A stretch of DNA of 64,000 nucleotides, from IMG/VR virus record IMGVR_UViG_3300042196_000418; one strand, given 5' to 3'. Positions within the stretch are counted from its first letter, which is position 1. Each line of letters opens with the position of its first letter. The notes under the pieces are model-generated. The model made no database searches, was not told the DNA's origin, and was given only the letters and a program-made list of their open reading frames with translations. The DNA is from a virus (taxonomy: Duplodnaviria; Caudoviricetes). The translations under genes were made by a program, and so were the position numbers. Positions 821 through 33,617 of the stretch are shown here, one piece after another.

Positions 821-846
821 CGTCACTCCACGGCGACGAAGAGAAC

Positions 847-6074: not shown

Positions 6075-6087
6075 GGTGGACTGCTAT

Positions 6088-6209
6088 TGCGCTCCGCGTG
6101 CCGAGACCGGCACGTGCAACACCGCGATCATAGTGCCTGGGTGTCGCAGTACCTGGCTCGGAACGAACACGCTGGCCGTGACGCTCGAGAGACGGGTATG
6201 CAGGTACCC
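6088..6209 (-). promoter_or_regulatory. Promoter cassette P1: paired palindromes plus sigma54-type -24/-12
   Basis: GGGTA-tgcagg-TACCC 6194-6209 (perfect), GGGTG-tcgcag-TACCT 6139-6154 (55 bp away). Minus-strand GG-cacgcggagc-GC at 6102-6089. Start codon 6074. Confidence 0.75.
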
Positions 6210-6497
6210 AGGACCATCAGCGCTTGAAGTCCGTGCGCGCCGCGAGTTGCGGAAGCTGGCTCCGACGAATCCGATAGACCTGGCAGCCGCTTGCATCGAC
6301 TGTCCATGCGTCGCCGGTGCCGAAGTAATCGTGGAAGAGCTTGGACGGCACGGTGCCCAGAACCGCCTGAATCAGCACGCAACCAACCTTGCGGTGTTTG
6401 ACGTCGTAGGCAATCCGATACTCTGGATCGTCCTCGGGATCGGCGAAGTCTTTCGGTGACGTCGGTGCAGAAGACACTTTGTTCTTGGTAGACATCC

Positions 6498-7055: not shown

Positions 7056-9688
7056 GCTGCCGCCTCCAGCAGCTCGACGTCACGAGGCCGCAGCTGCCGC
7101 AGCCATTCGAGGACCGCGGCCCAGCTGCGACGTGGCTCGAGCGCGCCATCCCCGAAGTCGACACACCACTGACCGTCCGTGGTGCGAAGCACCTCGTACG
7201 TGCGATTGGTCCACGTCATGCCAGGCCCCGTCTGGATCTGGCAGGTGATCAACGCACGACTTTGCGGTTCGCGAAGTGCCTCGATGGTCGCGTAGTCAGC
7301 TCTCTCGTACGTAGTCATTTGCGGTACCTCCCCTTCGCCTCTGGTAGCAGCTTCGTCGACCACTGCTCGATCGCGTGCGTGGCATCGTCGAACGTCGCAC
7401 GCGGATCTAGTACCCAACGCCAGTATGGGAGCTCGGTGGAATGCGGCGTCGCCTCGACATAGCTCTCGGCCCAGCGACCACCGACCCAGCGCCGGTAGAA
7501 CCGGAAGCGCCAGAGGCCCAGGACATCGAGCAGCCGCTGGAGGCGCGTCACGGTTTCCTCTTGGAAACGACGTCGTCCACAACACGACGAATCTCACGTC
7601 GCAAAAACGTCTCGACGCTCGCCGGTACGTGCTCGCCGGCCGCAACGCGGAAACGATTCGCATGGTACCCACGCGACAAGTGCCGGCCGCGCCGTGTACC
7701 GCTCCAGCAGCGCGTGCCGACCTCGGCGCCGCACTGGGGACAGGCGACGGAGAGGGCGTCGGTCTTCGCCGTCGCATCCATCACAGCTTGACCTCCGAGG
7801 CGATGATCACCTCACCATCCGCGAAATGGTACCAGCCGCGGCCGTGACGCCCGGCATGGTCCACGAGGGCGGACAGCGCGCAGCTGATCGCGTAGTAGTA
7901 GAGCTTCATCTCGGCCCGCGATATCTGCGTCATTCGTCGGGCTCCGCGAGCCAGCGCAGGTATGACCGGTAGATAGACCGACCGTCAGGGCACATCGCAG
8001 AGAGCACGCCATCCGGGACCGACAGTCGCAGCTCCTTGACCTGGGCGACGCGAACGTTCTCGGGATCGGTAGCTTTGCACTGCGAACAGTTCCCGAAGTG
8101 CCGAGAGACGTCATCGTGGATCCACGAGCCCTTCGTCACGAGCCGGCCTTCTTCCGAACGACAACCTCATCCGTGATGTCCTTGCCGCAGCTCTCGCAGA
8201 TCCACGCTTCTAGAGGTGCGCCATGCAGGCGGCCGTGCCCTAAGCGCGTAGGTCCGAGGTGCTTGCCATAGGAGCATGCTCGAATGGCCGGTGCGACGAC
8301 GGCGAACGTGAACTCCGGGTGCTGCCGCAAGCAGTCGGGTCCGATCGGCAAGAGCGTGGGAGCGCGAGAACCGTCGGGCCACGTCTGAAAGTCGCGCCAC
8401 TCATCGGCCAAAAGGTCAACGTCCGCAGCCACGAGCCACCACTCACCGTCGTTGGTGCGCGCCGTGCGCAGTCGAACCGCGTCCGGCCGCACGGGCCGCG
8501 CGCAGTACGCGCACAGCGCCTCGTCGTAGACGCCCATCCCGGCATCCATCCCGCCAAAGCGCTTGCACCAGCGATCGGACTGTACGAACACGAGCCGCTG
8601 CGTCACGGCAGATCGCTGTGTCACGGCAGGACCTTCGGCGCGTGTTTGCTCATGTATTCGAAGACCCTTCGTACTTCGGCTTTCGTCAGGCCATCCTCCA
8701 TCGCCACGGAGGACCAGTCCCCTGCGGTAGGGTCGTATCTCCATGCCGTGATGAAGAGACGCCACCGATCCGAGTCGCCGATGTCGCTGATCTGCGCAGT
8801 AATGGCGAGCGGAACGTGATCCTCGTAGGAATCGATACGAACGCCGGGTGGTGGTGGATGCACAGCGGTCATGGCAGTGCCTCCAGCGCCAGCTTCAACC
8901 GGTCACGAATCGTAGGCATTGGGCCCGCAGCGTCAGGCGCTGTCGTGTGCGCGGCCACCGTGGCTAGCTGTGCGGCGACAAGTCCGCAAAGTGCGTGAAC
9001 ATCATCCTCGTAGAGCTCGACGAGAACTTGCTTGCGATCGTTGCCTTCCTTGCGCCACGCGGCATCCATCGCGTCGGTCCAGGTGGCGACGAGCGTGATC
9101 TCGATCGTGGGCCGTGCCTCGCCGTCCACGATCGTCGCTCCGATCAAGGCCCTCGACCACGCCATGGCCGTGTGGTCGAACAGGTATACGAGGTCGACGC
9201 CGATCGCGATGCCGCGGGGCAATACGATCGTCACCGAGTTCCGATCGATCCGGATCTCGCTGGCCTGATACACGGCCCACGCACCGCTGTCGCGAACCTC
9301 GTAGCCAGGCTGCCCCCGCTTTTCCGGATGCTGGAGCAGAACGACTTCCAGCTCGGCAGCGTCACGCGCGCGGGACGCCACGTTGTGCGCCTCGAAGCGC
9401 GCACGGATCTCGGAACGAAAGCTCTCGGCAACGACTTCGTCGGACCATTGAAGTAGCGAGGCTTCGGTCATGACTGCCTCCACGCGTCAAAGCGCTTGAG
9501 CACGAGACGCGCGAGTGCCTGTCCTAGGATGATGACCATCACGAGGACACCGCCCTCCCATAGGCCGCGGTCGTAGTCCGCATGGTCCGCGAGCAACCAC
9601 TCGAGGCACCAATAGGTACAGGACGCGCTCAGGCTAATTGCGATGCCGAGCATGAACGGCAGGACGAAGCTTCGAAGTACACCACGCA

Positions 9689-10297
9689 TCAGGAGAGCCC
9701 CTTCCCATTAGAACCACCGTGAATCGCGCACCCTGCGTCACGACAGCCGCCTGCCTCGGACAGGATCGCGCTCGCGAGCTTACTGGCCAGTGCGGCGCTC
9801 TCGTCGGAGACGTAGGACAGCTCGTGGTAGCCGCTCACCGAGTAGCCGATGAGCTGCGCGAGCTGCTCCTCATCTTCCTGCGGGAAGTCTTGCGTACCGG
9901 TCCAGTTCAGACCGCCGTCGGAACGCGCTGGGAAGTCGGGATACACCCTGCCGCGTTCGGTATCACGATCGAGGAGTGCGTCCACGATCGTGTTCTTGCG
10001 GAAGCGGATGGTACCGCGTGCGTCCACGTGGACGGGCTGCATGGGATGCGGATCATAGCCCTTCAGTTTCTTCCCGCCGCCGAGCAGCGGAAGCGTGGGC
10101 CGCGTGACGCGGAGACCGAGAAGCTGTGCGAACTGCATGTGATCTTCGGGCGGAGCGTCGAACTTCACGATCTGACCAAGAGCGCCGCCATCGCGGTCGA
10201 ACAAGGCTCGAACGATCGCGTTCGCGCGGAAGCGAACCACGCCGTGCTCGTCTTGGATGACAGGCTGCATGGGATGGGATGGCAGCTCTTTCTTCAC
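9689..10297 (-). CDS. Hypothetical phage protein with two tandem PMQPV..D..G..RFR.N.IV domains
   Basis: HPMQPVIQDEHGVVRFRANAIV and HPMQPVHVDARGTIRFRKNTIV. Paralogs at 54433 and 56111. Confidence 0.8.
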   Translation of the reverse strand: MKKELPSHPMQPVIQDEHGVVRFRANAIVRALFDRDGGALGQIVKFDAPPEDHMQFAQLLGLRVTRPTLPLLGGGKKLKGYDPHPMQPVHVDARGTIRFRKNTIVDALLDRDTERGRVYPDFPARSDGGLNWTGTQDFPQEDEEQLAQLIGYSVSGYHELSYVSDESAALASKLASAILSEAGGCRDAGCAIHGGSNGKGLS

Positions 10298-10707
10298 GAG
10301 GATTTTCTCCCCCAGCGCTTGAGGCGCTTGGGGCGCGGCGCCATCTTGACGAGTCCGTGCCGCTGGAGCAGCCGACGAAAGTTCGAACGATCGACACCGG
10401 CCAAGAGCGCAGCATCCACCGCCGATCCCTTCGCGGACTCCATCGCGCGCACGAGATAGTTGCGCTCGAACGCGGTCGTTGCCAAGCGCTTCGCTTCGGT
10501 GAGCGGCATCAAGGTCCAGTCGACGATCAGTTCGAGCTGACGTGCATCAACCGCGATCGGCAGGCTCCAGTGCTGCTGTGCACCGCGCCAGCGGCAAATT
10601 CGAAGTTGCCCGGAGCTCTTGGAGGTGCCGACCACGATCGCAGCACCCTTGGAAGAGGTGCGCATACGATCGTAGACGATCTGGCCGATCAAAAGGCTGG
10701 TCTTCAC
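10294..10707 (-). CDS. Fis-type HTH (HTH_8) DNA-binding protein, EBP C-terminal domain without AAA+
   Basis: LTEAKRLATTAFERNYLVRAMESAKGSAVDAALLAGVDRSNFRRLLQRHGL matches the NtrC/Fis C-terminal HTH as found in myxobacterial sigma54 activators. The protein is only 137 aa, with no Walker A or GAFTGA motif. Confidence 0.8.
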   Translation of the reverse strand: MKTSLLIGQIVYDRMRTSSKGAAIVVGTSKSSGQLRICRWRGAQQHWSLPIAVDARQLELIVDWTLMPLTEAKRLATTAFERNYLVRAMESAKGSAVDAALLAGVDRSNFRRLLQRHGLVKMAPRPKRLKRWGRKSS

Positions 10708-11525
10708 GCTGCATCCTCCGTTGCTGGCAGCGCGAGCGGCAGGTCGGGCAAGACCTCAGGCGCATGCTCGGCCAGGAACACACGCCACGATCCTGGCTTC
10801 TTTTCTCCGCCACGCGTGCCCTTGACGCCACAGCCCCACAGTCCCTGGATCTTGGTCAGGCGTGGCCGGGCACGATCCTCCATCGCGACTGCACGGCGTG
10901 CGAGATCTGGGTGCTTCTTCGCGAGCTGGATGAGTTCAGCGGGCTTGAGCGACGGACAAAACCAGCAGCTCGACTTCGGTGGCACTGGCAGGCCCGCGGC
11001 GGCGATCTCCTTCATGCACCGATCACGATCCCAGCCCCACTCACGCAGGGGATAGATCCAGTTCCACGGCCCCTTGGTCTCGACGCCACCACGGCGCGAG
11101 TCGCATGGGCCCGCGTCGTAGCCGATCGCGCGACGGACCTTGCCGCCGGCCTTGATGTGCGCAGCGAAGTAGTCGGCGCAGGCGGCGTCGAGCGGCTCGC
11201 CCTTCCACTTGAGCGAGCACTTCTTGTAGCCGAACGCGAGCGACGGCAGCGTTTGGTTCACGAGGCAATTCTCCTCAAGCGTCGCGTAGTGCCCGTGCTT
11301 GGGCCGCTGCACGACGTACTGCACGTCGGTGATCGTCGGGAAGCCCACCTCGGCGAGCCACTTGTCGATGATCGGACGGTACGCGTAGGTCTCGGGCCAC
11401 TCGTTGCCGACCTGTGCGTGGCCGATCCAATGCGGTCGGATGCCGAGACGCCACCAGCCGACGAGCACTGCGGTCGAATCGACGCCCATGCCGTACGAGA
11501 GAGCCAGTAGATTGCCTGCGCTCAT
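10704..11525 (-). CDS. PAPS-reductase-like / PP-loop adenine nucleotide alpha-hydrolase
   Basis: LSYGMGVDSTA PP-loop, GNEWPETY, CSLKWK, IGYDAG, YPLREWGWDR..C, PPKSSCWFCP. Confidence 0.8.
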   Translation of the reverse strand: MSAGNLLALSYGMGVDSTAVLVGWWRLGIRPHWIGHAQVGNEWPETYAYRPIIDKWLAEVGFPTITDVQYVVQRPKHGHYATLEENCLVNQTLPSLAFGYKKCSLKWKGEPLDAACADYFAAHIKAGGKVRRAIGYDAGPCDSRRGGVETKGPWNWIYPLREWGWDRDRCMKEIAAAGLPVPPKSSCWFCPSLKPAELIQLAKKHPDLARRAVAMEDRARPRLTKIQGLWGCGVKGTRGGEKKPGSWRVFLAEHAPEVLPDLPLALPATEDAA

Positions 11526-14011: not shown

Positions 14012-14809
14012 TCACGGCAGCACGATCCCCGCCTCGCCGATCGCGAGCTTTTGCGCCTGAGTCAGATTGTCGACGAGGCCGCACTTGTTACACGCCATGC
14101 CCACGAGCGCGCGGGTGACCTGGTCGGCCGTCGAGTGGACGTCGCCGATCGGAAAGCAGTTGCTCGTCTCGCCGGCAACAATCGTCCCGTCGCACGAGAT
14201 ACTCGGCGAACAGTTGCCCGACATACCGAGCGCGGCCCGCGCGCGCAGCATCGTCAGCGCGGCGCGAACGTCGCCGAGCGAGCGCGTGAGCGAGCGCAGA
14301 TTGAACGACGTAGGTCCCTTGCGAACGGGCAGGCCGTCCTTGCCAGAGTGAGCGCGCGCAGGCTTCATGCGGCCGAGCGGAATCAGGATCGAGAGCGTCG
14401 GCACGAACACGACACGTGGATCGTCCGTCGGAACAGCCGTCGGCCGCCTTGGATAGAAGCGTGGATCGTTGGTGATCTGCACCATCAGGCGCGGCCATTC
14501 GGGCCGCAGGATCTTCGCCCGGAGCGTCGGATCGTCGAGCCACATCCCGTTGGTGATGAGGATGACGTCGTACCCTCCGTCAATCACCGTCGAAAGGAAC
14601 CACTCGACGTCGGGGTGCTCGGTAGCCTCGCCACCGCTGATCAGGATCCGGCGCGGAATGCCCGAACGCCACGCGTCGCCTTCGAGACGCTCGGTGAGCG
14701 CGAGCGCAGCAAGAAAAGTCTCGCGCGTCATGTGCTCGCCAGCTACCGTGGACCCCTCGGAGCAGTGGTTGCAGCCCATGGAGCAGTAGTTCGTGATCTT
14801 GATCAGCAC
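14012..14809 (-). CDS. Radical SAM protein
   Basis: ITNYCSMGCNHC (CxxxCxxC), ISGGEATEHP, ITNG, C-terminal Cys cluster (SPASM/twitch-like). GTG at 14809 overlaps the upstream TAG. Confidence 0.9.
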   Translation of the reverse strand: MLIKITNYCSMGCNHCSEGSTVAGEHMTRETFLAALALTERLEGDAWRSGIPRRILISGGEATEHPDVEWFLSTVIDGGYDVILITNGMWLDDPTLRAKILRPEWPRLMVQITNDPRFYPRRPTAVPTDDPRVVFVPTLSILIPLGRMKPARAHSGKDGLPVRKGPTSFNLRSLTRSLGDVRAALTMLRARAALGMSGNCSPSISCDGTIVAGETSNCFPIGDVHSTADQVTRALVGMACNKCGLVDNLTQAQKLAIGEAGIVLP

Positions 14810-15576
14810 TACTCGCCCCACCCACGCAAATCGTTGGCGACGTCGAGCCAATATTGCGACTTCGCCAGCATCTTCTCCGCAGCTTTCGCGCGCCCGGCCT
14901 CAAGCTCCTCGTTGTAGTTGCCGAGATAGCGTGCGGCCATCGCCTCGGCGTGCACGATGCGCTCCCCGACGGTGCGCTTGGTCATCGTCTTCGCGGTCAT
15001 CTACCGCTTCCTCCGCCGACGGCCGAACAGGCCCGCGACCAGATCGGCCGCCATGTAGCCCGCGATGCCGGCGCAGATGCCACGAGCTTCCGCTGCGACG
15101 TTGAACGACCGCAACCGCATCACGTGCAGGAAGAAGTACGCAACAAGGATCGCGATCATGACGATGCAGAGACGGCGGACGGTGTCGCTCATGGCTTGGC
15201 CTCCGACTTGGGAGAGAGCTTGACGAAAGCCGCGAACGCAGCGTCCTCGATCACGCGCGCGGGCACCATGCCGCTGCGCGGCTGCATGAACTTCTCGTCG
15301 TCGAGCACCAGCTCTATCGCCGTGCGGATCACGGCCCGCGGCTGCGCGCCGAGGAGCAGCCCGTGCGCCATGTCGACAGCGCGCTTGCGGACCTCGGATC
15401 GCGTCCAGATCTTGCCCTTGCGGCTCGTGATCGTGTAGCGCTCCTGCCACTCCTTATCGGTCATGGGCGCTTGCTCCCACAGCGGTTGCAGCGACCGTCC
15501 GATCCTTGCGTGCCGTTGCAGCGGCCCCAGATGCAGGACTTCGCGGCGAGAAAGCGGCGAACAGTGCTCGTGGTGC

Positions 15577-16189: not shown

Positions 16190-19100
16190 TCATCGACGCA
16201 CCTTCGGGCCGTCGAAGCGGTGATGGCACTCCAGGCACCACCAGCGCGAGGTCCCTGGCTGGTCTCCGACGATCGGCTTGCCGTAGTTGCGGAGCGGCAC
16301 CGTGTCCGTGTGGCTGCACCGCGGGCACGCGAGATCGGGAAGCTGTTGTTTCTTCAGCATCAACGCGCGTTGCGCTCCGCAAAGGCCCGCAGCTCCGCGA
16401 GCTGTGCCTCGCGCTTCTCGAAGCGGTGATCCGCCGCGAGCTTCGTTCCGTGCCACCACTTCCGCGGCACGTCACCCTCTTGCCGGATCCGCTGATAGAG
16501 CGTGTCCATCAGTGTTTCGTTCGGGCCGCGTCCGAAGTCCGCGGTGACCGCGAGGTAGAGCTTGTCGCCCTCGCGAAGGAGTTGCGGATTCTTGAACGCA
16601 GCGACGCGCTGCTCTTTCGTCCACATCACGTCAGCTCCGTCAACTCGCCGATCGTCTCGGCTATCCGGCGAACGAACTCCTCGCGCGTCTCCCCTTCCTG
16701 CCAGGTAAGGCGCTTCTTGTACGTGTTCTTGTTCGTGTCGACCTCGACGGTCACGGCGATCTCGCGAATGTGCTCAGCCATGCGGCACCTCCACGTTCGG
16801 ATCGTACGGAATCCGCACCACCGCGCCCAGCCGGTAGAACCTGCCGGGTTCGAGCGGCTTCGCGTGCGGCACGCAGCGCCCACGCCCGCGATCGGCGAGC
16901 TGCTCGATCGTCGGCCGCGCGGCGCGGAGCGCCTCGGTCTCGTCGGCCGCGTCGACCACCGCGAGCGCGATGTCGGGCTCGCCGTAGAGCGTTTTGTCTT
17001 GAATCGTGACGATGAAGATCATCGGCGCCTCCCACGGCGATTCTTGTACGCGTCGAAGATAACGAAGCCGATGACGGCTCCGAGCGCCATGAACGCCACG
17101 AGCCAGGAGAACGCCGTAATGACGAACTCCCACGTGTGATCGCGCCAGGTCATCGAAGCGTCTCCACCGTGACCGGCACTACCCTCGCCGGATAGCTGTT
17201 GTTGAGCCGGTCTGCAATCCGACGCGCCGTCGGTCCGTCGAACACGCTTGCTTGATCGACGTGGCAGTCCCAACGATCCGTCCCGTCGTCGATCCATGAC
17301 GAGAGAAAGTACGGCATGAAGCCGGTACGCTGCACAACGATGTACTTCACGACGGGATCCCCGTCGGAGGCCGAACGAGCCGAAAAGCCCCGTCCTGCCA
17401 ATCATACAGCCAGAAGCGCGGGAACTTGTCCGGGTCACCAGCGTAGGCCGCGTCGACACGCGCGATCAGGTCCCAGTCCTTTGGGTCGCGATCCGTCGGA
17501 TCGATCGGCACCATCCCGTCGAACGCGGAGATGTCTTTCTGACGAAGTCCGTGCGCCTGCATCAACGTCGTCGACGCGCGCAGGATTTCGCGCCACCGCG
17601 GCATTGGCCACGGCACGCGCACGAACATGAGCGGACCCGGGCTGATGACGGTCATGTAGTGCCTCTGCGTCACCGCAGCTCCTCCAGCTGAGAGGGCTGC
17701 ACGCGTACGCTGCGCAGCCCGTCGTCGTCCTCGAATTCGATGACGACGTAGACTCCTTGCGCGTCGCGACCGCGGCGGATGACATGCGCCGCGTAACGAT
17801 CGCCGTCCGAATCGGTCCAGACAACGTCAGGGACGACGTAGCGGCCATCACAGATCACGCAGCCACCGCCGTCCCATCATCCAGATATCCGCATCCCGCC
17901 GCCTTTGTCGCGCGCTGCGCGGCGCCGCACACGGGGCACGGCATGATCTTTCGCTTGTACGGCCGACTCGCGAACACTGGCAACGGAGTACCGGTCTTGG
18001 TCTTCGAATCGAAGCCCATGATCGAGAGCTTGATCCCGTTCTTGGTAGTCGGTGCCTTGCGTGCCTCCAGCTCGACGATCTTGGCGAACACGCGCGGACG
18101 TTCAGCGGCGAGGACCTTCCAATCACCACGTGAACCGTAGGGACATTTCATACAGGCTGATTTCCGGGGCACCGGGTAGCCGCTCGCGCGGGCGAGCGCC
18201 TCGCAGCGACAACGGCAGAGTCCGCGCTCCATGAGCGGGAAGCGATTGACGCGCCCTGCATGAGTCATCGCGAACGCAAGCGCCTTCGTCCACCGCCACG
18301 CGATCGTCAGATCGCGCAGTGGAGCCGATTTGCCAGGCTCGCGACCGTAGCTCGGGCCGCGTGGCTTGCCCGCGTTCGGATCGTTCTCGACGCGGCTCGT
18401 CTCCGCACCATCGAAACCGATCCACACTTCGACTTCCTGGCCGTGGAAGCGATCGTCGAGCCAACGCTCGAAGCGCTCCACCTTGGCGATCCGCGTGCAG
18501 ATGCGGTTGGGCCCGGCGACAGGGATCTGACCCATGTTCCAGAGCCACTGGAACAGCGATCGTGCGGCCTGGTTGTCGGGACGGATCAAGTAGCCCGTGC
18601 GCGCAGAGATCTCGACGAACTCGATACCGCGGGCCGCACACCACGGCTGAACGATCTCCTCAACGTGGCGGTACGTGCCATCCCACTCGCCGGGATGCTC
18701 GTCACGATCGTCAGCATCCCCGACGTCGACGAACGCGACAATGTCGGGCAGTTCGCCGCGAATCTCGGCATCGAGCAGCATCGCCCACGAGTCGAGACCA
18801 CCACCGAGCGAGAGGACCTTGGGACGCTTCATCGTGAAGTCCCGCGGCGTCGAGCGACCTCGGCCAGCTCGGCCTCGATGTTCGCGCCCGTGATGATGGC
18901 GATCGGGCGTCCCGCGCGCTCTGTGTAGAGCCGCACGAGCCACGGGGACGTCCAGCAGCACTGGAGCTTCTTGCTCTCGTTGTTCGCCACGTCTACCACT
19001 CCCCTCGCTTGATCTCGCGGATGTGGAGGCCAAGCTGGTTGTTGTATGCGACTTCGAGGTTGAGCAGCTTGCAGATGTTCTGCGGTAGATCTTCGTTCTG

Positions 19101-19657
19101 AACATGGTCCTCGGGCCGATAGTACGGCGCGGTATCCGCCGAGGGCTTGGAGATGCTCCATCCCCACCCTGCGCCCGCGACGAAGCTGAAGCCATGCAGC
19201 TTGAAGTACGGCAAGATCTCGACGCGGGCCTGTTCGGCAAGCTTCTCGACCTCGGCGTGGAACGCAGCCTGCGCTGCCTCCAGCCCCTTGGAGAACTGGC
19301 CGAGGGTCCGCTTGGAAAGATCCTTCACGACACGAACCCACGGTTGAAGCGCGAAAACGTCTCTTCGTCGCGCGCTCGATCGATCTCATCCCAGAGCGCA
19401 CGTTCGTTCAACTCGCGAAGCGCTACGAGTTCACGGTAATCCTCGACCGCCTGCCATTCATGCGCGTCCGCCGCATGCTCGTCCGCCGCCATGCTGATCG
19501 TGTCGCGAATGACATTCCAGTCGCGCGCATCATCGAGTCCGCACGCGATTGCGTCACGCGTGTCGCGAAGCGCAAGAGCCTTCAACCTACGAGCCCGCTG
19601 TGCGCGTCCAGTGCGCATGATGGCGCGGAGTAGTTTCATGTGCCGCGTGATCCGCAT
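16190..19657 (-). other. Minus-strand operon of about 12 small genes including a second PAPS-reductase-like gene
   Basis: Overlap-coupled ORFs (19325-19657, 18993-19328, 18829-18990, 17855-18832, 17670-17858, 17347-17673 and others). Confidence 0.7.
17855..18832 (-). CDS. PAPS-reductase-like / PP-loop protein (second copy)
   Basis: MKRPKVLSLGGGLDSWAML, GEWDGTY, RICTRIAKV, WIGFDGAE..R, FPLME...R..C, PRKSACMKCP. True start is likely ATG 18832. Confidence 0.8.
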   Translation of the reverse strand: MKRPKVLSLGGGLDSWAMLLDAEIRGELPDIVAFVDVGDADDRDEHPGEWDGTYRHVEEIVQPWCAARGIEFVEISARTGYLIRPDNQAARSLFQWLWNMGQIPVAGPNRICTRIAKVERFERWLDDRFHGQEVEVWIGFDGAETSRVENDPNAGKPRGPSYGREPGKSAPLRDLTIAWRWTKALAFAMTHAGRVNRFPLMERGLCRCRCEALARASGYPVPRKSACMKCPYGSRGDWKVLAAERPRVFAKIVELEARKAPTTKNGIKLSIMGFDSKTKTGTPLPVFASRPYKRKIMPCPVCGAAQRATKAAGCGYLDDGTAVAA

Positions 19658-20282: not shown

Positions 20283-20578
20283 TGCTCGGACGCGTGAAGA
20301 TGATCTCGAACACAGGCTGCCCGTTACCCAGCCTGGTGGAAGTCGAGTTCGACCAGGCCGACGTTGTCCAACTCGGCAAGCTCTACTGCTGGGGCAGCGC
20401 GGGATGCCAGTTCATCGTGCGGCTGCGTGACGGTCGTGAAGTGTTCGTGAATGCGAGCAAGCAGCGCAAGGACGATGAGCGCTTCCTGCGCCGCCTCGCC
20501 AAACCGATTCGCGGTTGGGCGCCAGGCCGCTCTGAAGGCTTCCGCACGGTGTGGAGCACGCTGATATACTCGTCGTGA
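20279..20578 (+). CDS. Hypothetical protein (paralog of 34574-34843)
   Basis: FDQADVVQLGKL...IVRLRDGREVFVNASKQRKDD. Confidence 0.7.
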   Translation: MMLGRVKMISNTGCPLPSLVEVEFDQADVVQLGKLYCWGSAGCQFIVRLRDGREVFVNASKQRKDDERFLRRLAKPIRGWAPGRSEGFRTVWSTLIYSS

Positions 20579-20585
20579 AGGACCC

Positions 20586-20969
20586 ATGGCGAAGAAAAAG
20601 TCGCTCGACAGCTACTTGCAGCTCGCGAATCATGCGGCCCGTTGGGCAGCTCCCAACAGTCCCTTCGCGGCGGCGAATCCAGCGCTGCGTCCGTACATGA
20701 CGCGTGTGCCTAGGGAGATCGGACCTCGCATCGATCGTCAGTTCTGGTTTGGTGAAGTGCTCGATGATCTCCGCCGCGCTGCCGAGCGCGACCTCAATTC
20801 AACCGAGCTGAAGCGCCTCGATAACGTCCTTCGACTCATGATCGCGACACCTCCTGCTGGCTATGGCTCGGACTCGAAACACATGACGACTCATCACGCG
20901 GCCCGCAAGAAGAGTCCAGCTCAGCTCGACCGCGAGATCGCGGAAGCGACCTCGCGGTCTCGACGCTGA
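20586..20969 (+). CDS. Hypothetical protein with C-terminal AQLDREI tag
   Basis: Ends RKKSPAQLDREIAEATSRSRR. SD aagga upstream. Confidence 0.75.
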   Translation: MAKKKSLDSYLQLANHAARWAAPNSPFAAANPALRPYMTRVPREIGPRIDRQFWFGEVLDDLRRAAERDLNSTELKRLDNVLRLMIATPPAGYGSDSKHMTTHHAARKKSPAQLDREIAEATSRSRR

Positions 20970-21191
20970 TCACGCTTCAACGCGTGCCGAACACACCGGG
21001 AAGTTGCGTCGAGACAACGCCGTCAGCACTGCGCAGCCGCGCCTCCCGCTGACGCCAGCTCGGCAGTTAGTGTACAGATCCCGGAGAGAACGAAACACGG
21101 GTGCTTTGCGCACCCACCCCACACTTCAACAGCTAGCGCGGGAGTGCCGCGGCCCGTGATACTTTCCGCTTCCAACCACAACGAGGTCTCC

Positions 21192-21938
21192 GTGAAGCAG
21201 CTCAGTGTTCTCTTTCTTCTGTTCGTGTTCGCAAACTGCACCATCGACGACGAGACCGTCTCGTCAGTCGAAGACGAAGTCGTCACGCCCGAGGCGATCT
21301 CGGCGGCACAGCTCAACAGTGCCAAGGCAGCTGCCAGCGCCATCGGCGGGGCAAGCCTGAACAGTAACAGCGCCGCCATCCAGAGCCTCGTATCGACGGC
21401 CAACGGCCAAGCCGTATTCGGAGCGATCGTGGCCTGCGCCGTCTCGAGCGGGCAGAGCGTCAGCGCCACAGGTCCCAGCGGCACGCTCACGTTCAACGGA
21501 GCGCTGGGTGTCGCGTCGGCCTGGCGCACGTCGGCTCCGACCAGCGCGAACAAGCGTTGGACGACTGCGTGCGTGCTGTCCAAGACCAGCGCCTTCGGCT
21601 TTACTTTGAACGTGTCGGTCCGTCACGATTCCTACCTGCCGTTGACATCCACCGCTGCGGAGCGCGCGACATACGCGGTCGCCGTCGGAGCGTTCTATGG
21701 CGACTTGTTCCAGGCTTCACCCAAGACGTTTGCCTGTGGCGCCATCAACTGGCCTGCGGGCTCAGATCCGCGCGTCGAATGCGCGCGCACGGTCAACGGC
21801 GTCACCACGACGTGTGGCTTCAGCTGGACGGGGCTGTGCACGAACACGCCTCCCTGTACGGACAAGACAGCGCCCTACGGAACGTGTACGGGCAGCGCTG
21901 TTCCGTACGCGGAAGTCGCAACGATCTTCATCCAGTGA
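21192..21938 (+). CDS. Cys-rich secreted lipoprotein, myxobacterial-type hypothetical family
   Basis: Signal peptide ending FANC. Motifs IVACAV..G, FNGALGVASAW, RWTTACVLSKT, VSVR, GAFYGDLF recalled from a family common in myxobacteria. Confidence 0.65.
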   Translation: MKQLSVLFLLFVFANCTIDDETVSSVEDEVVTPEAISAAQLNSAKAAASAIGGASLNSNSAAIQSLVSTANGQAVFGAIVACAVSSGQSVSATGPSGTLTFNGALGVASAWRTSAPTSANKRWTTACVLSKTSAFGFTLNVSVRHDSYLPLTSTAAERATYAVAVGAFYGDLFQASPKTFACGAINWPAGSDPRVECARTVNGVTTTCGFSWTGLCTNTPPCTDKTAPYGTCTGSAVPYAEVATIFIQ

Positions 21939-22230
21939 AGGACTGAGGTCTCGGCCGCCGCGCAGCTGATATACTCGCCGTAACGAGGCAGACGTCGACC
22001 AGGGCACTCGAACAAGCCCGAACGCAGGTGCGCCGCGGCTTTGACCAAGGCTACCCGGTCGACGCGGTGGCGGCCTTCATCGAAGATGTCGGACCCGACG
22101 TCGACGCACGTTTGTGGGCGTGGTGGATGACGCTCTCAAACCTGACGACCGGCCCAAAAACGAACGTGGTTTTCGGCGCTACTACGAGGGTGTGTACGAA
22201 GACCTCGAAAATCTATGGCCGCGACGCTGA

Positions 22231-22632
22231 TCAACGCGCCATGCCCGGAAGTTTGGAGGCGACGATACCCTCGTCGCTGCGCAGTCGCGCATGCCGCTGT
22301 CGCCAGCGCGGCATGTAGTGATCCATCAACGTGTAGAAGCGTGCGTCGTGCCCGGATCCCTTCTCGTCACCGATGAGGAGGTGCACGAGCTCGTGTACGA
22401 TCACGTACTCGAGGTCCGCTGGCTGCATCGTTGCGAGCGCCTGGCTGATCCACATGCGACGCGTGGCCAGGTTGAGCGATCCAAACCGCCGCATCTTCTT
22501 GACCCGAAAGTCGCTGAGAGCCACGCCGAGAATGGGTTGCCACTTGTCGAGGAGCGTCTGCACGCGAGCCACGAGCCGCGTGCGCTCCTGGTGGTTCGCG
22601 ATTTCGCGATCGAGCTGGCGTGCCGTCTTCAT
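22231..22632 (-). CDS. YgjP/DUF45 (M48-like) zinc metallopeptidase with N-terminal QLDREI tag
   Basis: KKMRRFGSL...LEYVIVHELVHL....HDARFYTLMDHYMPRW. Starts MKTARQLDREIANH. Confidence 0.85.
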   Translation of the reverse strand: MKTARQLDREIANHQERTRLVARVQTLLDKWQPILGVALSDFRVKKMRRFGSLNLATRRMWISQALATMQPADLEYVIVHELVHLLIGDEKGSGHDARFYTLMDHYMPRWRQRHARLRSDEGIVASKLPGMAR

Positions 22633-22648
22633 GTACCGAGTACCAAGG

Positions 22649-22997
22649 TCATTCTTTCCCTGGGCGATGAGCCAGCGCATCGGCGATCTCGCGATCTAAC
22701 TGTGCAGAAGACTTTTTCGTCGCCGTCGTCCCCTCGCGTGCATCGATAATCTCTTTTGCCTCTGCAATGATCGGCGCTCGGCGCCGCATTGGTCCACCCC
22801 CAACTGAAGCCAGAAATGGCAAGGAACGCAGGTGCGTCCTTGATGGTCTCGAAGCGCCAGCTCCCCGGCGTGCCGAGCAGCGCGACGACCCAGTGTCCAC
22901 CATCCATGCGCAGCTCGACGTCGTAGCTGCGCCCCGCCTGATCGAGCGCCTTGGTGGAAAGAGGGATGCGCTCGGTGAGCTTCCACTTGCTGGCCAT
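22649..22997 (-). pseudogene. AQLDREI-tag protein frameshifted by a 7-bp tandem duplication
   Basis: tcggcgc twice (22771-22777, 22778-22784). Deleting one copy joins MASKWKL...WTNAAP to IIAEAKEII...KKSSAQLDREIADALAHRPGKE. Confidence 0.7.
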
Positions 22998-23283
22998 GGC
23001 ATCTCGATTCTAGTTGTTATCGTCGTTGGACGCGACGATCACGACAGCTCCCGATCGTAGCTCAAGCACTCGCCGTCGGACGAATCTGCCGGGGCCACCC
23101 CCGGAGATCTTTGCTCATCGCCCACGCAGGACGGCGACTAAGGCACCACAAGAAGAAGCGCCCGTTCCAGTAGATCAAATCCGTCGACTCTGGTTGTAAA
23201 GGCGCTCCATGCATGTCCACGACGCTACAAGGCGCCTCTGACGTTCGTGGGCCGGCGCCAGGCACGGAGCCGCGGTCCCGTGG

Positions 23284-23838
23284 CTACGGTCGGAAATTAT
23301 CCCACGCTTCATGCACGCCATGGAGCTCGGGATGGAAATGATGGTCACGCATCTCTTGGTACGCACGATCCTTCGTCCAGTGGTCGTGCAACACGCGATA
23401 GCGGCCGATAACGTACCCAGTGCGATCTTGGCCGTGGGTGCAGTGGACGAGCCACAGCTCGTCGGCGGTCGCTCCAACGAGCAGTGTCTCTGCCTCGTCG
23501 ACGAGCAGGGGATCCGGCCCTTTGAACACACTCTTCAGATCGTCCCACGTGCTTTGATCTCCCTCGGGTTGAATCGCGAGAACATGCACTTCGATGCCCA
23601 TGCGCGCCGCGAGGTCATCGGATCCTTCCGTGTCAAAGTTCAACTTGATTACGTGCACGTGTCGACCGTTCGCGAGCGCGCGGATGTAGTTCCAACCCTC
23701 CTGCGTCGTGATCTGGCCAGAGCGCCAGACGTTGGTGTTGACCTGCGCGAGGTTAGGGATCCCGTGCGTGTAGTGCATGGGAGAGCAGGCGGTGAGCGTG
23801 GCGAAGACGAGGACGAGGGCGAAGGTACGAATCGACAT
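23284..23838 (-). CDS. Protein tyrosine / dual-specificity phosphatase lipoprotein
   Basis: Lipobox LTAC, NLAQV...VWRSGQ, catalytic HCTHGQDRTG (HCx5R). Confidence 0.88.
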   Translation of the reverse strand: MSIRTFALVLVFATLTACSPMHYTHGIPNLAQVNTNVWRSGQITTQEGWNYIRALANGRHVHVIKLNFDTEGSDDLAARMGIEVHVLAIQPEGDQSTWDDLKSVFKGPDPLLVDEAETLLVGATADELWLVHCTHGQDRTGYVIGRYRVLHDHWTKDRAYQEMRDHHFHPELHGVHEAWDNFRP

Positions 23839-23873
23839 GCCGCGAGGCTAGCGCGATAGTGTCTCGCGCAGAT

Positions 23874-24203
23874 CTAGAACGCCTTCAGCTTCCACTTCTT
23901 CGGCGAGACCTGCTTGAGCGCGTCCTCGACGCTCGAGTGCTGCGAATCTCGGACGGGCCCCAGCTCGTCGAAGAAGCTGACCTGCCACTTACCGATGGAC
24001 TTGGTCGAGGGGTGGACGATCGCCGACTCGTCGCGCCTCATTCTCGACGAAAATTCGGCGCCCCGCAGCGGACCCACGACCTTCCAGTCACAGCTCTTGA
24101 TCCCAAACGCGAGCGTGCGACAGACCACGCGCAGCGGAGACTTGTGCCGTGCCAGGGCCTCTGCGATCTCACGATCAAGCTGGGCGGACTTGTTCACCGA
24201 CAT
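23874..24203 (-). CDS. Hypothetical protein with N-terminal AQLDREI tag
   Basis: Starts MSVNKSAQLDREIAEALARHK at ATG 24203. Confidence 0.75.
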   Translation of the reverse strand: MSVNKSAQLDREIAEALARHKSPLRVVCRTLAFGIKSCDWKVVGPLRGAEFSSRMRRDESAIVHPSTKSIGKWQVSFFDELGPVRDSQHSSVEDALKQVSPKKWKLKAF

Positions 24204-24385
24204 GGGCCTCCGTGGTCTTGGGGTTCCGCGTTCCGCGCGTTCGAGTCTACTGCGTGGAACTGCAAAGCCCCAATTTCGAGCGAGCGATCGCCACAAGTGA
24301 GGCAGCCTTCGCGAAACAGCTCTCGTGCTACGATCAAAGGAGGCGTCGAAGCCGCGGCCTCCGCGCAACGCGCAACACCTAAAGT

Positions 24386-24898
24386 CTATTCCTCGATCGT
24401 CGCGCCAGCACGCTCGGCCGCCGCGCGGCCCGCCTTCGTGAAGGGGCCGACCACGACCAGCTCGGGCGAGACCTCGGACCGGTACGCGTCGAACAAGACC
24501 TGCGCGAGCCCGCGTCCGCGCGCATCGGAATCGACCCAGAAGTGATGCACGTAGGGCCGGTCGAGTTCGACGGAATACGCGAGACCGGCCAACGGATCCT
24601 CGACGCCGCCCTTGGGCAAAACGATCAAAATGCGGCCAGAGCGCCCGCCGCCATACATTTTACCGACGGTGAAGATCAGATCCCAAGCACTCGGAATGCC
24701 TGCGAGCGTGACCTCGATCGGCTCGCGCCGTGTGATGCGCTCGCCCATGAGCGCCTCATGCACGCGCTCGCGCGTGATCCGCTCCATGCCGCCGTTGCCG
24801 TCAGGCCGCTTCGCCAGCGTCTCCTCGATCTCGCGCTCGAGTTGCTTGGCGGGCGTCTTCTTCTTCGCGGGAGCCGCCTTCTTCGGCGTGCGCGGCAC
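24386..24898 (-). CDS. GNAT-family acetyltransferase with N-terminal QLEREI tag
   Basis: VHHFWVDSDARGRGLAQVL (GNAT motif A). N-terminus KKKTPAKQLEREIEETLAKR. GTG 24898. Confidence 0.7.
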   Translation of the reverse strand: MPRTPKKAAPAKKKTPAKQLEREIEETLAKRPDGNGGMERITRERVHEALMGERITRREPIEVTLAGIPSAWDLIFTVGKMYGGGRSGRILIVLPKGGVEDPLAGLAYSVELDRPYVHHFWVDSDARGRGLAQVLFDAYRSEVSPELVVVGPFTKAGRAAAERAGATIEE

Positions 24899-24900
24899 GG

Positions 24901-25410
24901 CTACTCCTCGCTCTGCGCGCTCGCAATTTCCGCCTGCAACGCACTCTCCAGTGCAGCCTTCTCGCTTGCGGAGAGCTTCTTCCACGCCGCACGCACCATG
25001 TCGTCGGGAGTCATCCACTCGAAGGCCCCAACCATCTGCGTGAGAGCCGCAGAGCGATTCATGCGCGGGTTCGCGAGCACCTGCTTGGCCATGAGCATCG
25101 AGCCGTAACCGTAGTTACCAGCGAGCAACCAGCCGACGCGCTCTGCCACCAAATTGGGGTCTTCGCTCATCGCCTTGTAGAACTCCGCCTGTGCCTCCTT
25201 CCGATCGGAGAGCGGTGCCCGACGAAGCCCGTCGAGATGCTTGCGCGCATCTGCAAGCTCGCGACGCTCGTACTCCGCCTGACTCGGAACGCCGGAGGCT
25301 TTGGCCTTCGCGCCCGTCGCCGCTCCCTGCTTCTTTTCGCGCATGCGCAGGACCTCGTCGATCTCACGATCGAGCTGCGCGCCACGCGTCTTCGTACCGT
25401 TGTTCGCCAT
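24901..25410 (-). CDS. Helical hypothetical protein with N-terminal AQLDREI tag
   Basis: MANNGTKTRGAQLDREIDEVLRMR. Confidence 0.75.
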   Translation of the reverse strand: MANNGTKTRGAQLDREIDEVLRMREKKQGAATGAKAKASGVPSQAEYERRELADARKHLDGLRRAPLSDRKEAQAEFYKAMSEDPNLVAERVGWLLAGNYGYGSMLMAKQVLANPRMNRSAALTQMVGAFEWMTPDDMVRAAWKKLSASEKAALESALQAEIASAQSEE

Positions 25411-25435
25411 CAGCCTATGCTCCCTTTCGTTCGAA

Positions 25436-25936
25436 TCAATCGTCGGTGTTCATGGCGTCATCGACAGACAAAAAGCCCCGACGAACGGATTCCGCGACGT
25501 CCTCGTCACGCCCTTTGGACATTCCGGTGCGGCGGACGTTGTCAGCAAACTTCCGCAGCTCTTCGTCGCGGAGCGACTCCCCGATCTCACGATCAAGCTC
25601 GGCAGCACTCTTCGCAGAGGGCTTGCAGGCGCCCGGCACATACTGCTGGCGTGAGCGACATCGCGAACGATGCCCGAGCTTGCCGGCATCAACTCCGTGC
25701 TTGGTCAGCTTACTGAGCCAGTTCGCTGCTCCACATTCTTTGCATTCGATCCAGGTGTCACCGTCTGGCGCAGGTTCGATCAACAGCTGATCGACCGGGT
25801 TCCCAGCCTCATGACCGACACACTCCGCATGTACTGCGGGCTTCCCTTTTTCATAGGCGATCGCTCTGCCAGGCTTGATCCTTTGGGAGCACGCTGGACA
25901 GGTCGACTCGAACTTTGCCGTGATGATTTTGGGCAT
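25436..25936 (-). CDS. Zinc-finger protein with internal AELDREI tag
   Basis: AKFESTCPAC...VHAEC, CKECGA...H..RC, then KSAAELDREIGESLR. Confidence 0.75.
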   Translation of the reverse strand: MPKIITAKFESTCPACSQRIKPGRAIAYEKGKPAVHAECVGHEAGNPVDQLLIEPAPDGDTWIECKECGAANWLSKLTKHGVDAGKLGHRSRCRSRQQYVPGACKPSAKSAAELDREIGESLRDEELRKFADNVRRTGMSKGRDEDVAESVRRGFLSVDDAMNTDD

Positions 25937-26215: not shown

Positions 26216-26770
26216 TCATAGCAACGACAGTTGCTCCACGATCTCTGCGGCCCTCTCTGCCGGACGAAGCGCCATCCACAGCACGCCCAGCGTATTCGTA
26301 CCGTGCCACGTCCCATCCGCCTGCCGCGCAGCGCCCCAGAACAAACCAGATTCGTTCGCCCTCGCAGTACAGTCCTCCACGATACGGCGGTTTCCCGTCG
26401 CGCGCAGGGCCTCCAATAACAGCGGATGCTGTTCCAGCTTCAGGCCCAAGATCACGCGCATGTTGGAGATGTCCTGCTCGGAGCGCGGCTGCACGATCAT
26501 CTCGCGTGCATGCTCTTTCGCGATCCTCTTCACCATCATGGGACTCGTCGCAGCCATGATCAGCTTCCTGACCTCGGAGGTGTCAGGGAAACGCTGCGCT
26601 TGGAACGCATGTTCCGCGGTGCGCCAGAGCCCCACCGGATGCGGCGACATGTTGCCGAGCCATCCGTAGGGCTCACGTACCTTTCTGATCACGATGTCGT
26701 CGGTCACGAAACGGGCGCCAGCTCCGAAAGCGGAAAGATCCACGGGCCGCGCCCGATCCGTTTGGTACAT
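26216..26770 (-). CDS. NADAR (YbiA/DUF1768) family N-glycosidase / ADP-ribosylhydrolase
   Basis: YGWLGNM, WRTAEHAFQAQRF, SPMMVKR, KLEQHP.L...L.ATGNRRIVE, FWG, GTNTLGVLWMALR. Confidence 0.9.
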   Translation of the reverse strand: MYQTDRARPVDLSAFGAGARFVTDDIVIRKVREPYGWLGNMSPHPVGLWRTAEHAFQAQRFPDTSEVRKLIMAATSPMMVKRIAKEHAREMIVQPRSEQDISNMRVILGLKLEQHPLLLEALRATGNRRIVEDCTARANESGLFWGAARQADGTWHGTNTLGVLWMALRPAERAAEIVEQLSLL

Positions 26771-27507: not shown

Positions 27508-28851
27508 TCACGACACGACCTCCTTCGACAAGATCTTCGACGTCTTCATCTTCTGCGCCTTGCGCGCGGTCTTCTTCGCGAGCGCCTCAGCCTTCGCCGC
27601 ATTCATGGCCATCAGCTCCGCGTAACGGGCGATGATCGAGGCGGCATCGGTGTATTTCACTTCGAGCCCCAGCAACGCCGCGACTGCGAGACGAACCTTG
27701 GCCAACAGATCCGCCTCGTCCGCCGTGGGCATGACCGTCGGCCAGCCCTCGGTATAAAGCAAGTGCTTCGGGATGCGAGCCTCGATCTGCTCACGTGCAC
27801 GAGCACGCTGCTTAGCGGCGGCGATCGCAGCCGCCGTCTCCTCGTCGAGCAACTGCGGGGCAATGTCAGCGAGCCACGACGAGCCCTGGAACGCGAAGGT
27901 CGACGCGATCTCCAGCGCGACCATCGTGCGGAACACCGGTACGTTGTCCTCGCACGTCGTAGACGCGACCAGGTCCGAACGCTGCGCCATAATGCAGTAC
28001 CGACACGAGATCCGACTCATGCCGTAAACCGTGTAGCCCTCGTGGAGATCGAAGCCGCGCGCTGCGCAGAACGCATAGACATCGCGATCGGTCCACTCGG
28101 CGATCGGGTTCCAGTCGAGGCCCGTGGTGCAGGAGCCCTTGTGCTCAAGGCGCTTGTTGCGCTGCGCCGTCTTGGCGCCGCTACGCTGGCGACTCTCCGC
28201 GCGGCGGATGCCAGCGGCCGAAATGATCGTCTGACCAGGAAACCGCTTGACGAGCGCGGCGGCGATCGGCGCACTCTTGAGTTCTGACGTGCAGAACCGC
28301 ATCGAGGGCGTCGACCAGGGGAGGATGACCTTGACGCATTCGAGATTCGCGTAACGGCGACGGTTGTTCGACCAGCGGCCCTGCCAGCGCTTCATCATGC
28401 CGCCGGCTGCACGACGCACGACAATCAGCTCGACGCCGAGCCGGTCTGCGAGGCGCTGACACGTCGGCAGCGAGTCGGTCCATTCGACGCTCAGCTCCGG
28501 GCGCTCGTCGCCGAGGTCGGCGTGTACGAGGATGCGCGGACCGGTGTGGCCGATCGTGTCCAGGTACTCGATCGTCGCAAGGGCGGCGGCGCAGGAATCC
28601 TTGCCGCCGGACACACCGATCGCGACCGGAGCGTTCGCGGCCAGCGCCGCGGCCAAATCGGAGATCGCCGCGATCTCGACCTTGGCCTCCTTGCACTTGG
28701 CAGCTGACGTCGATCGCGCCGCGATCAATGCTTCGAGCTTCGCGATCCGCTCCGAGAGCGACTCGACACCGCGGTCGATGCGACCGGGGAGCCCGAGCGA
28801 AACAAGCTTCTGACCTGGGCTGCATGCCGACATTTGAACCTTCGACATCAT
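27508..28851 (-). CDS. Phosphoadenosine phosphosulfate reductase family protein (mobile-element type)
   Basis: VAIGVSGGKDS, VHADLG..EW, FCTSELK, GIRRAES..R, WNPIAEW, LH..Y..YGMSRISCRYCIM. ATG 28851 lies 14 nt from the promoter -12 position. Confidence 0.88.
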   Translation of the reverse strand: MMSKVQMSACSPGQKLVSLGLPGRIDRGVESLSERIAKLEALIAARSTSAAKCKEAKVEIAAISDLAAALAANAPVAIGVSGGKDSCAAALATIEYLDTIGHTGPRILVHADLGDERPELSVEWTDSLPTCQRLADRLGVELIVVRRAAGGMMKRWQGRWSNNRRRYANLECVKVILPWSTPSMRFCTSELKSAPIAAALVKRFPGQTIISAAGIRRAESRQRSGAKTAQRNKRLEHKGSCTTGLDWNPIAEWTDRDVYAFCAARGFDLHEGYTVYGMSRISCRYCIMAQRSDLVASTTCEDNVPVFRTMVALEIASTFAFQGSSWLADIAPQLLDEETAAAIAAAKQRARAREQIEARIPKHLLYTEGWPTVMPTADEADLLAKVRLAVAALLGLEVKYTDAASIIARYAELMAMNAAKAEALAKKTARKAQKMKTSKILSKEVVS

Positions 28852-28863
28852 GTCCCTCAACTA

Positions 28864-32849: not shown

Positions 32850-33617
32850 GTGTCGAAAGTGCACGCGCTGCCGCGGCTCCGGCGTCGTTACCAACCGACT
32901 GGGGATCATCGGCTACGCGCCGTGCCCCGAGTGCGTGACGCTGTGACGTTCGACGGCAACGACAACACGCGCCGTGAGGCTGCCGCGCTACGTCGCCAGG
33001 GAGCGTTGTCGCGCGCAACCTTTGGGAAGCCACGGGGGACGCGCACGGAAGCCGCGGCAGCCAGGACGCCGGTTCCTGGGCGCTACTATCCGAACACAGC
33101 TGCCGAGTTCGTCGTCCCAGCGAAGGACTTCCGTTTGGATACGTACCTCCACATCCTGTGGTTGGACATCGACGAAGAGACGCGTGTGCTGGCGACGTAC
33201 GTCATCGCGGAGTTCGGCGACGCCTCTTGCGTTCATGATCTTGCAGCGCTGCTGCATGCCGATCGTCTCGCAGACGGACGCACGTTTGGTGAAGAAGCGC
33301 GCCGTGGCGCAGCGTTCGCGCTGGCGAGCATCGGTGGTCCAGACGCTGAAGATAGTCTCTGGAGCGCGCTCGAACGGAAGGCGTGCCCTGTCCATGTGCG
33401 CGAGGCCGCCCTCGACGGTCTCTTGGATCTGATGACGCCCGACGGATGGGAAAACTACAACTTTCAGAGCACGACAAAGATTTCCTTGCCGACGAACGTC
33501 CGCGAGCGGCTACTGCGCGTGCAAGACGATCTCCCTTTTCTCGGCAGACTTCTCGAAACCTTCTTCGACCGCGACGCAGCTGTCCAAAGCTCCGACGCCA
33601 GCCAAGGGAGCATGTAA
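32850..33617 (+). CDS. HEAT-repeat protein
   Basis: RVLATYVIAEFGD, ARRGAAFALASIGGPDA, VREAALDGL. Start uncertain. Confidence 0.6.
   Translation: MSKVHALPRLRRRYQPTGDHRLRAVPRVRDAVTFDGNDNTRREAAALRRQGALSRATFGKPRGTRTEAAAARTPVPGRYYPNTAAEFVVPAKDFRLDTYLHILWLDIDEETRVLATYVIAEFGDASCVHDLAALLHADRLADGRTFGEEARRGAAFALASIGGPDAEDSLWSALERKACPVHVREAALDGLLDLMTPDGWENYNFQSTTKISLPTNVRERLLRVQDDLPFLGRLLETFFDRDAAVQSSDASQGSM

Follow-up and report, generated by a model that had tools for sequence, protein, structure and literature searches.

Cargo-loading peptides of encapsulins and encapsulation peptides of bacterial microcompartments are short peptides or amphipathic helices that sit on flexible linkers at either end of the cargo and are read by the shell; what is conserved in the encapsulation peptides is a pattern and not a sequence. 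Polymorphic toxins carry junction peptides, VENN in CdiA and DPxGL in Rhs, that part a constant delivery region from a variable toxin paired with immunity genes, and in Rhs the junction is also a cleavage site. The capsid-targeting sequence (CTS) of bacteriophage T4 ends in I-A-E, which are the P3-P1 residues of the site cut by gp21. Diverse internal proteins have nothing but this CTS conserved in common, and it suffices to load foreign proteins (PMC3012670). For polyvalent proteins, packaging or transfer together with the DNA has been predicted, as has processing by peptidases embedded in them (PMC5512222). Here we describe a 15-residue peptide tag, with the consensus KK-S/T-P-A-QLDREIAEAL, of which seven copies are encoded in a 64,000-nucleotide stretch of the IMG/VR virus record IMGVR_UViG_3300042196_000418 (Duplodnaviria; Caudoviricetes), hereafter called the window.

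With encapsulin and microcompartment peptides the tag shares the layout of a short helix, a linker and unrelated cargo; its consensus differs from theirs, and no shell gene was recognised in the window. Its likeness to the junctions of polymorphic toxins lies in a short conserved peptide at the place where variable modules are exchanged, but here the modules on both sides are variable, and the majority of its carriers are small, single proteins of the cytoplasm. We found no description of this peptide, or of the boundary motif H-[AS]-T treated below, in the searchable literature, where searches with the tag peptide and the terms DUF6496/HATKKS returned nothing relevant.

Seven copies of one peptide in the window

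A preliminary description of this DNA had reported the peptide in seven unrelated proteins and had stated that its codons vary and that it had not been seen in the other ~150 open reading frames (ORFs). When all six frames of the window were searched with a regular expression, [QE]L[DE]REI matched seven times, between 20.9 and 25.6 kb, and nowhere else. The leucine codons of these matches lie at 20925 on the plus strand and at 22614, 22699, 24179, 24841, 25374 and 25597 on the minus strand, so that every reported copy was recovered in its place. A profile seeded with the seven copies scored them at 30.7-38.3 bits in the six-frame translation, and the next best match in the window reached only 4.2 bits, in keeping with the reported absence of the motif from the other ORFs. 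The degenerate DNA pattern for QLDREI was matched 5 times, against 0.00 expected from 100 dinucleotide-preserving shuffles. The copies use different codons (CTC/CTT/TTA, GAC/GAT and CGC/CGT), which bears out the statement that it is the peptide that is conserved and not a DNA repeat. Because of the regular-expression and profile searches, the shuffle counts and the differing codons, we conclude that the peptide is real, clustered, far above chance and no DNA repeat. Gene calls on identical DNA in a public collection back five of the seven carriers.

The tag is a conserved helix under selection as a peptide

Conservation was counted in 116 unique tags from the collected loci. From the first to the last position, the counts were K71, K93, S55 or T40, P47 or A36, A85, Q113, L115, D101, R113, E114, I115, A96, E88, A91 and L108, values that overstate invariance, as the sample had been picked through perfect QLDREIAEAL matches. 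The tag is followed by a stretch rich in R, S, G, K and P, and H is also frequent in these linkers. A sample of another kind was provided by 37 orthologues of the 109-amino acid (aa) protein of the window: the tag is kept in all of them, the first leucine and the isoleucine (L0 and I4, counting from that leucine) never vary, and conservation reaches at least 90% at D1, E6 and L8. At the DNA level, 115 distinct tag-coding 45-mers showed pairwise identities of 0.78, 0.84 and 0.49 at the first, second and third codon positions, with all six serine codons (TCN and AGY families) and both leucine codon families in use. The low identity at third positions and the mixing of serine and leucine codon families therefore indicate that selection acts on the peptide.

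AlphaFold2 modelled residues 5-18 of the 109-aa protein as a helix (predicted local distance difference test score, pLDDT, ~62), separated by a 5-residue linker from a confident beta-rich body (pLDDT 88-96), using the alignment of 37 sequences. In a three-module protein the tag was again a helix within a long low-confidence linker, a weak model given its shallow alignment and mean pLDDT of 56. The S/T-P-A-Q segment would make a textbook helix N-cap. Foldseek gave no PDB match at E<=0.001 for the 109-aa model. The tag profile, compared with PDB sequences, matched no natural peptide-protein complex; its REIAEAL half matched only designed type-2 coiled-coil heptads (CC-Hept, EIAKALR). A four-copy complex prediction of the 109-aa tagged protein scored 0.00, which weighs neither way.

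Variant forms of the tag also occur. A second dialect, QLQREIDE[AV]L, stands alongside QLDREIAEAL in the same loci (L009, L025, L060, L039, L023 and P0051), and in the first three of these the HAT-prefixed internal tags are QLDREIAEAL while the N-terminal ones are QLQREIDE[AV]L. A shorter form, KK[IL]DREI[HK](E)AL followed by RKSHGVRG, is found twice in tandem at the N-terminus, beside a canonical tag, in L042 (3196-3987, minus strand) and P0055.

Position swaps and domain shuffling

Both position INDEPENDENCE and shuffling are seen in the tagged proteins. Of the same 116 tags, 52 are clearly N-terminal, with M at -9 to -7, and up to ~65 are if ambiguous cases with a nearby start are included; 12-15 are C-terminal (12 within 20 residues of the stop); at least 15 are internal, meaning that GC contents at the first, second and third codon positions (GC1/2/3) are of coding type on both sides of the tag; and the remainder are ambiguous. 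The majority of carriers have one domain and are ~100-250 aa long; there are also strings of 2-4 modules, and proteins with two tags.

The portability of the tag is plainest in the family of the 127-aa protein of the window, whose 13 orthologues all have exactly one tag, N-terminal in 7, C-terminal in 2 (the window gene included) and internal in 4. In the four internal cases the tag joins the body to three different extra domains. Partners are likewise exchanged in other proteins: X1-tag-Y1 (L070) and X1-tag-Y2 (L057) have X1 domains that are 73% identical, the Y1 domains of X2-tag-Y1 (L011) and M-tag-Y1 (L056) are 55-73% identical, and five more families combine the same domains with other partners around the tag. 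Small proteins made up only of a Fis-type helix-turn-helix (HTH) domain (HTH_8, like the DNA-binding end of sigma54 activators; L021, L068 and L069) have tagged and untagged members, the window gene at 10294-10755 (-) being an untagged example.

A boundary motif next to the tag

The motif H-[AS]-[TS] was found at positions -12 to -9 in 23 of the 116 tags, an enrichment that concerns the non-N-terminal ones, and at +13 to +25 in 22, against ~0.1 expected per position. Among the top 150 cluster representatives of the protein search described below, 83 of 117 non-N-terminal tags had the H-[AS]-[TS] prefix, a proportion raised by the ranking itself: the prefix is part of the profile, so that copies with it rank higher. 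In N-terminal tags, the place taken by H in internal tags is occupied by M. Followed by K, R or M, and often as HAT-M, H-[AS]-T also marks other module boundaries, apart from the helix tag (proteins and loci L012, L017, L024, L030, L049, L070, P0056, P0059, P0104 and P0194). When strings led by DUF6496 were aligned, their order was DUF6496, HAT, module 2, HARKK, tag, H[AS]T and a variable module 3.

Serine replaces alanine in the motif through several codons, and exact CACGCGACG occupies 42% of HAT sites, about twice the 20% predicted by codon usage. On these grounds H-[AS]-T is a signal chiefly at the level of the protein; some common descent of the DNA may add to this. It may be a processing site that frees modules or removes the label, or else a fusion scar.

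Spread of the tag and nature of its cargo

Searches beyond the window, which had been proposed as a follow-up, showed a lineage-wide spread. Against 1.84 billion protein cluster representatives, a 32-column profile found 830 clusters (50% identity) at E<=0.001. An exact scan for DNA encoding QLDREIAEAL recovered 66 stretches in JGI metagenomes, several of them on contigs of 461, 333, 231, 202 and 111 kb, and one 10.8-kb contig in IMG/VR (L001), where the pattern KK..AQLDREI had no match. The densest loci have 10 tags in 5.9 kb (L007) and 9 in 9.5 kb (L037). Background occurrence in unrelated proteomes, which had been named among the observations that would undo the proposal, was addressed with the same exact scan of 185,579 species genomes. 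It gave five single matches, all without the KK prefix and at 14-17.5 bits, which we rejected as true tags since they look like ordinary helices; no full tag with the KK prefix was present in these cellular genomes. A tblastn search with a 22-aa tag, whose shortness limits sensitivity, had no match in 50,697 phage and 72,556 plasmid records, and neither did a blastn search of phage records with a 7-kb region. The tag is thus restricted to one lineage and is lineage-wide within it. The DNA of the window is present in three sediment-metagenome runs, and no RNA run was found among the sequencing runs that contain it.

On the IMG/VR contig L001, the tagged gene lies on the same strand as two pectate-lyase-like proteins of ~750 aa and collagen-repeat proteins (570-8399, minus strand), in a block that adjoins a conserved multi-pass membrane protein which recurs in nine loci. 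This arrangement is the single hint that tagged cargo may be part of the virion.

Few cargo bodies are recognisable. Among 115 tagged ORFs from the collected loci, 6 had a Pfam match at E<=0.001, the families including DUF6496 (two members), YgjP-like, SprT-like, PARP, ART-PolyVal, HTH_8 and ParB_N. The 150 cluster representatives added Pfam matches to DUF6496 (four members), Sigma70_r4, aspartyl protease, GNAT, SPOR and EFP_N.

Carrier genes and neighbouring genes in the window

The first carrier, and the only one on the plus strand, is the 127-aa gene (20586..20969), supported by a gene call and by its orthologues, with a C-terminal tag KKSPAQLDREIAEAT at 20907-20951 and HHAAR just before it. 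The MAKKK at its N-terminus looks like the vestige of an N-terminal tag. The next, at 22231..22680 (-), had been labelled an M48 protease. The label must be revised, as Pfam gives a YgjP-like metallopeptidase domain (E 6e-23), not clearly M48, and the peptide, although at the reported place, is only a half-tag (MKTARQLDREIANHQ, 22588-22632) in which the AEAL half is missing. This half-tag overlaps the beginning of the Pfam domain match, and the gene starts at ATG 22632 or at ATG 22680, the latter being the called start.

The tag KKSSAQLDREIADAL at 22673-22717, preceded by TAT, belongs to a 46-aa ORF at 22649..22789 (-) whose ATG lies behind GGGGGTGG. Here the peptide is present as described, but it is not inside any called gene: the ORF is in the +1 frame relative to a called 122-aa gene at 22629-22997 (-), overlapping the 3' half of that gene, which loses coding-type GC3 after ~70 codons. 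The DNA is 99.97-100% identical in four other assemblies (L073-L076), and the frame is therefore not a one-off assembly error. The 46-aa ORF would be either a tag-only mini-protein or the frameshifted or displaced C-terminus of the 122-aa gene.

The remaining four carriers have gene calls. The 109-aa gene at 23874..24203 (-) starts at ATG 24203 and has its N-terminal tag at 24153-24197. The 170-aa gene at 24386..24898 (-), from GTG 24898, encodes a basic KKAAPAKKK segment and then, as its N-terminal tag, the variant KTPAKQLEREIEETL at 24815-24859, and a 169-aa gene without assigned function at 24901..25410 (-) has the N-terminal tag KTRGAQLDREIDEVL at 25348-25392. The 166-aa protein encoded at 25436..25936 (-) carries an internal tag, AKSAAELDREIGESL at 25571-25615, and after it a conserved C-terminal segment of 40 aa, also present on the 461-kb contig (L043). 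The 170-aa and 166-aa proteins had been described as a GNAT and a zinc-finger protein; matches to GNAT and zinc-ribbon families do exist in Pfam, but they are below threshold, and we call the two proteins GNAT-like and Zn-ribbon-like.

Within the cluster, two untagged genes, at 21144-21938 (+) and 23284-23838 (-), start with lipoprotein-type signal peptides. The tag seems to be reserved for cytoplasmic proteins, and its absence from these two fits a label that would be read in the cytoplasm. The second of the two is tyrosine/dual-specificity phosphatase-like.

A relative of the window, L051, is 84-87% identical to it and lacks both the GNAT-like gene (missing stretch 24206-24897) and a 3.3-kb block (20555-23868) that holds three tag copies (those of the 127-aa gene, the 46-aa ORF and the YgjP-like gene), the two lipoprotein genes and the 122-aa gene. 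These differences are whole-gene cassettes with breakpoints at gene starts and none inside tags, and recombination at the tags was accordingly rejected as the source of the differences between the window and L051.

The cluster is flanked by two genes like those for PAPS reductase (phrog_424), a radical SAM gene and a NADAR gene (17855-19240, 27508-28860, 14012-14851 and 26216-26770, all on the minus strand), which resemble a toolkit for nucleic-acid modification or ADP-ribose. The surrounding window also has a secreted phosphatase gene, and a 506-aa gene at 38717-40237 (+) with a weak match to GHKL/HSP90-like ATPases; the latter has the top GC3 of the window (0.90) and may be highly expressed.

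Discussion

The tag shares with the T4 CTS, carried by IPI-III and Alt, the property of being a short peptide that is alone common to diverse, fast-evolving accessory or anti-defence proteins. I-A-E or I-x-E also stands in ~76% of the tags (E at position 6 in 88 of 116). In T4 the sequence is found strictly at the N-terminus and is cut off by the prohead protease, whereas about half of the copies described here are C-terminal or internal. No HK97-type head genes were seen in the window, a prohead protease was likewise absent from the window proteins scanned, and packaging and cleavage of the tag are predictions. Polyvalent proteins (Iyer et al. 2017, PMC5512222) resemble the tagged proteins in repertoire, with ART-PolyVal/PARP, YgjP/SprT-like metallopeptidases, ParB_N and GNAT, and in their beads-on-a-string architecture. 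They join 2-15 domains covalently in one giant polypeptide, whereas the tagged beads are for the most part small proteins of their own or strings of 2-4 modules, linked by a shared helix and H-[AS]-T. The overlap between the recognisable cargo and the polyvalent repertoire fits co-delivery with DNA.

A helix on tethers, conserved as a peptide and kept in one copy whatever its position, on hundreds of unrelated proteins of one lineage, leads us to predict a docking or address label. We give about even chances to the reading that the tag works as a movable docking label, independent of its position and recognised by a single shared partner. The tag would be a self-contained amphipathic alpha-helix of 12-13 residues, with S/T-P-A-Q as N-cap, L0, I4 and A7/L8 as hydrophobic face, conserved D1, E3 and E6, and a KK anchor five to six residues upstream, and would sit on flexible R/S/G/K-rich linkers. 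A single reader, encoded by the element or by its host, would bind this helix and so collect dozens of small accessory or effector proteins at one place. The likeliest place may be the assembling particle, in which case the proteins would accompany the DNA as if a polyvalent protein had been cut into separately tagged parts; the chances of a replication or assembly compartment are about the same. The H-[AS]-T sites, followed by K, R or M, may then free the modules or remove the label. Loading into particles for co-delivery is suggested by analogy, because effector-type cargo and the T4 precedent fit it. As for the modular address label put forward in the preliminary description, the conserved peptide, the unrelated bodies, the exchange of position with one copy per orthologue and the absence of the full tag from the cellular genomes searched support it well. 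Loading into virions or docking on a scaffold, as suggested there, would be candidate functions, and about half of the copies depart from the T4 model in not being N-terminal.

Several observations weigh against the docking label. No reader was found, and binding, packaging and localisation of the tag are predictions; the window has no recognisable capsid, scaffold, portal or prohead-protease gene. More than 90% of cargo bodies have no known domain, so that "effector" rests on a handful, and the tagged Fis-type HTH proteins and the sigma region 4 fit recruitment to DNA or transcription as well as they fit packaging. Among the orthologues of the 109-aa protein R2 and E3 vary, the apparent invariance of the tag being partly a matter of sample selection. 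Many tags lie between two domains with H-[AS]-T on both sides, where cleavage, if it occurs, would free the tag as a peptide, an outcome ill suited to a label.

The search for a reader produced one rejected candidate, a ParA/MinD-type partner by analogy with MinE and the N-terminal peptides of ParB: the window lacks a deviant Walker-A ATPase, and a RuvB-like P-loop at its end is all that it has of this kind. The only peptide-reader-type fold noticed in the window is that of a 224-aa protein at 32943-33617 (+) with sub-threshold HEAT-repeat matches (E 6e-5), which has no homologue in the collected tag loci.

In another explanation the tag and H-[AS]-T are a processing junction, in small polyproteins and pro-proteins, for a protease encoded by the element, the helix serving as a recognition element that is discarded, much as the T4 CTS is cut at I-A-E. 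The enrichment of H-[AS]-[TS] near the tags would be expected of such a junction, and so would HAT-K/R/M at other module boundaries, where the frequent HAT-M looks as if the next module had retained its own start; in N-terminal tags, M indeed stands in register with the H of internal ones. I-A-E within the tag resembles the T4 gp21 cleavage site, and proteases (YgjP/SprT-like and aspartyl) are among the tagged cargo. We nevertheless consider a processing junction unlikely, since terminal tags on single-domain proteins would gain nothing by cleavage, yet 13 of 13 members of the 127-aa family keep a tag, a downstream HAT is found in only about one third of N-terminal tags, no prohead-type protease was seen in the window, and cleavage is itself a prediction.

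Two further explanations dispense with a dedicated reader. If the tags bound each other, or partitioned into a condensate through their helices and their R/S/G-rich linkers, the match of the REIAEAL half to designed coiled-coil heptads, the abundance of R, S, G, K and H after the tag and the presence of two tags on some proteins would be accounted for; a stable coiled coil needs more than one heptad, however, the L0-I4 spacing is i+4 where designed heptads have i+3, and the conservation of polar residues, together with the KK anchor, points to a specific partner, which makes self-association improbable in our view. The tag might instead be a recombination or shuffling junction, a neutral linker that spreads by enabling in-frame fusions, as the combinatorial X-tag-Y architectures and the twofold excess of exact CACGCGACG at HAT sites would allow. 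This we regard as very improbable, because third codon positions are nearly free while the peptide stays, tags persist on single-domain proteins, one per orthologue, and the cassettes by which the window and L051 differ have their breakpoints outside the tags.

To return to the docking label, a bolder version of it, which we regard as rather doubtful, is that huge, apparently tailless virus-like elements of soils and sediments use a two-part sorting code, with the docking helix loading dozens of separately encoded effectors onto one reader for delivery with the genome, and H-[AS]-T being cut by a protease of the element to release modules or strip off the label. The two parts would amount to a "distributed polyvalent protein" that has its own grammar of address and cleavage.

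That each orthologue has one tag, wherever in the protein it stands (either end or the middle), is natural evidence of unusual clarity for a modular label. The 15-residue peptide offers a simple handle for fishing out the reader, so compact a tag could serve for loading foreign cargo, and H-[AS]-T, as a mark of boundaries, may prove to be a new processing site. If one reader does bind the helix, the tag would list at least 830 protein clusters, nearly all without assigned function, that giant environmental viruses or elements treat as one group.

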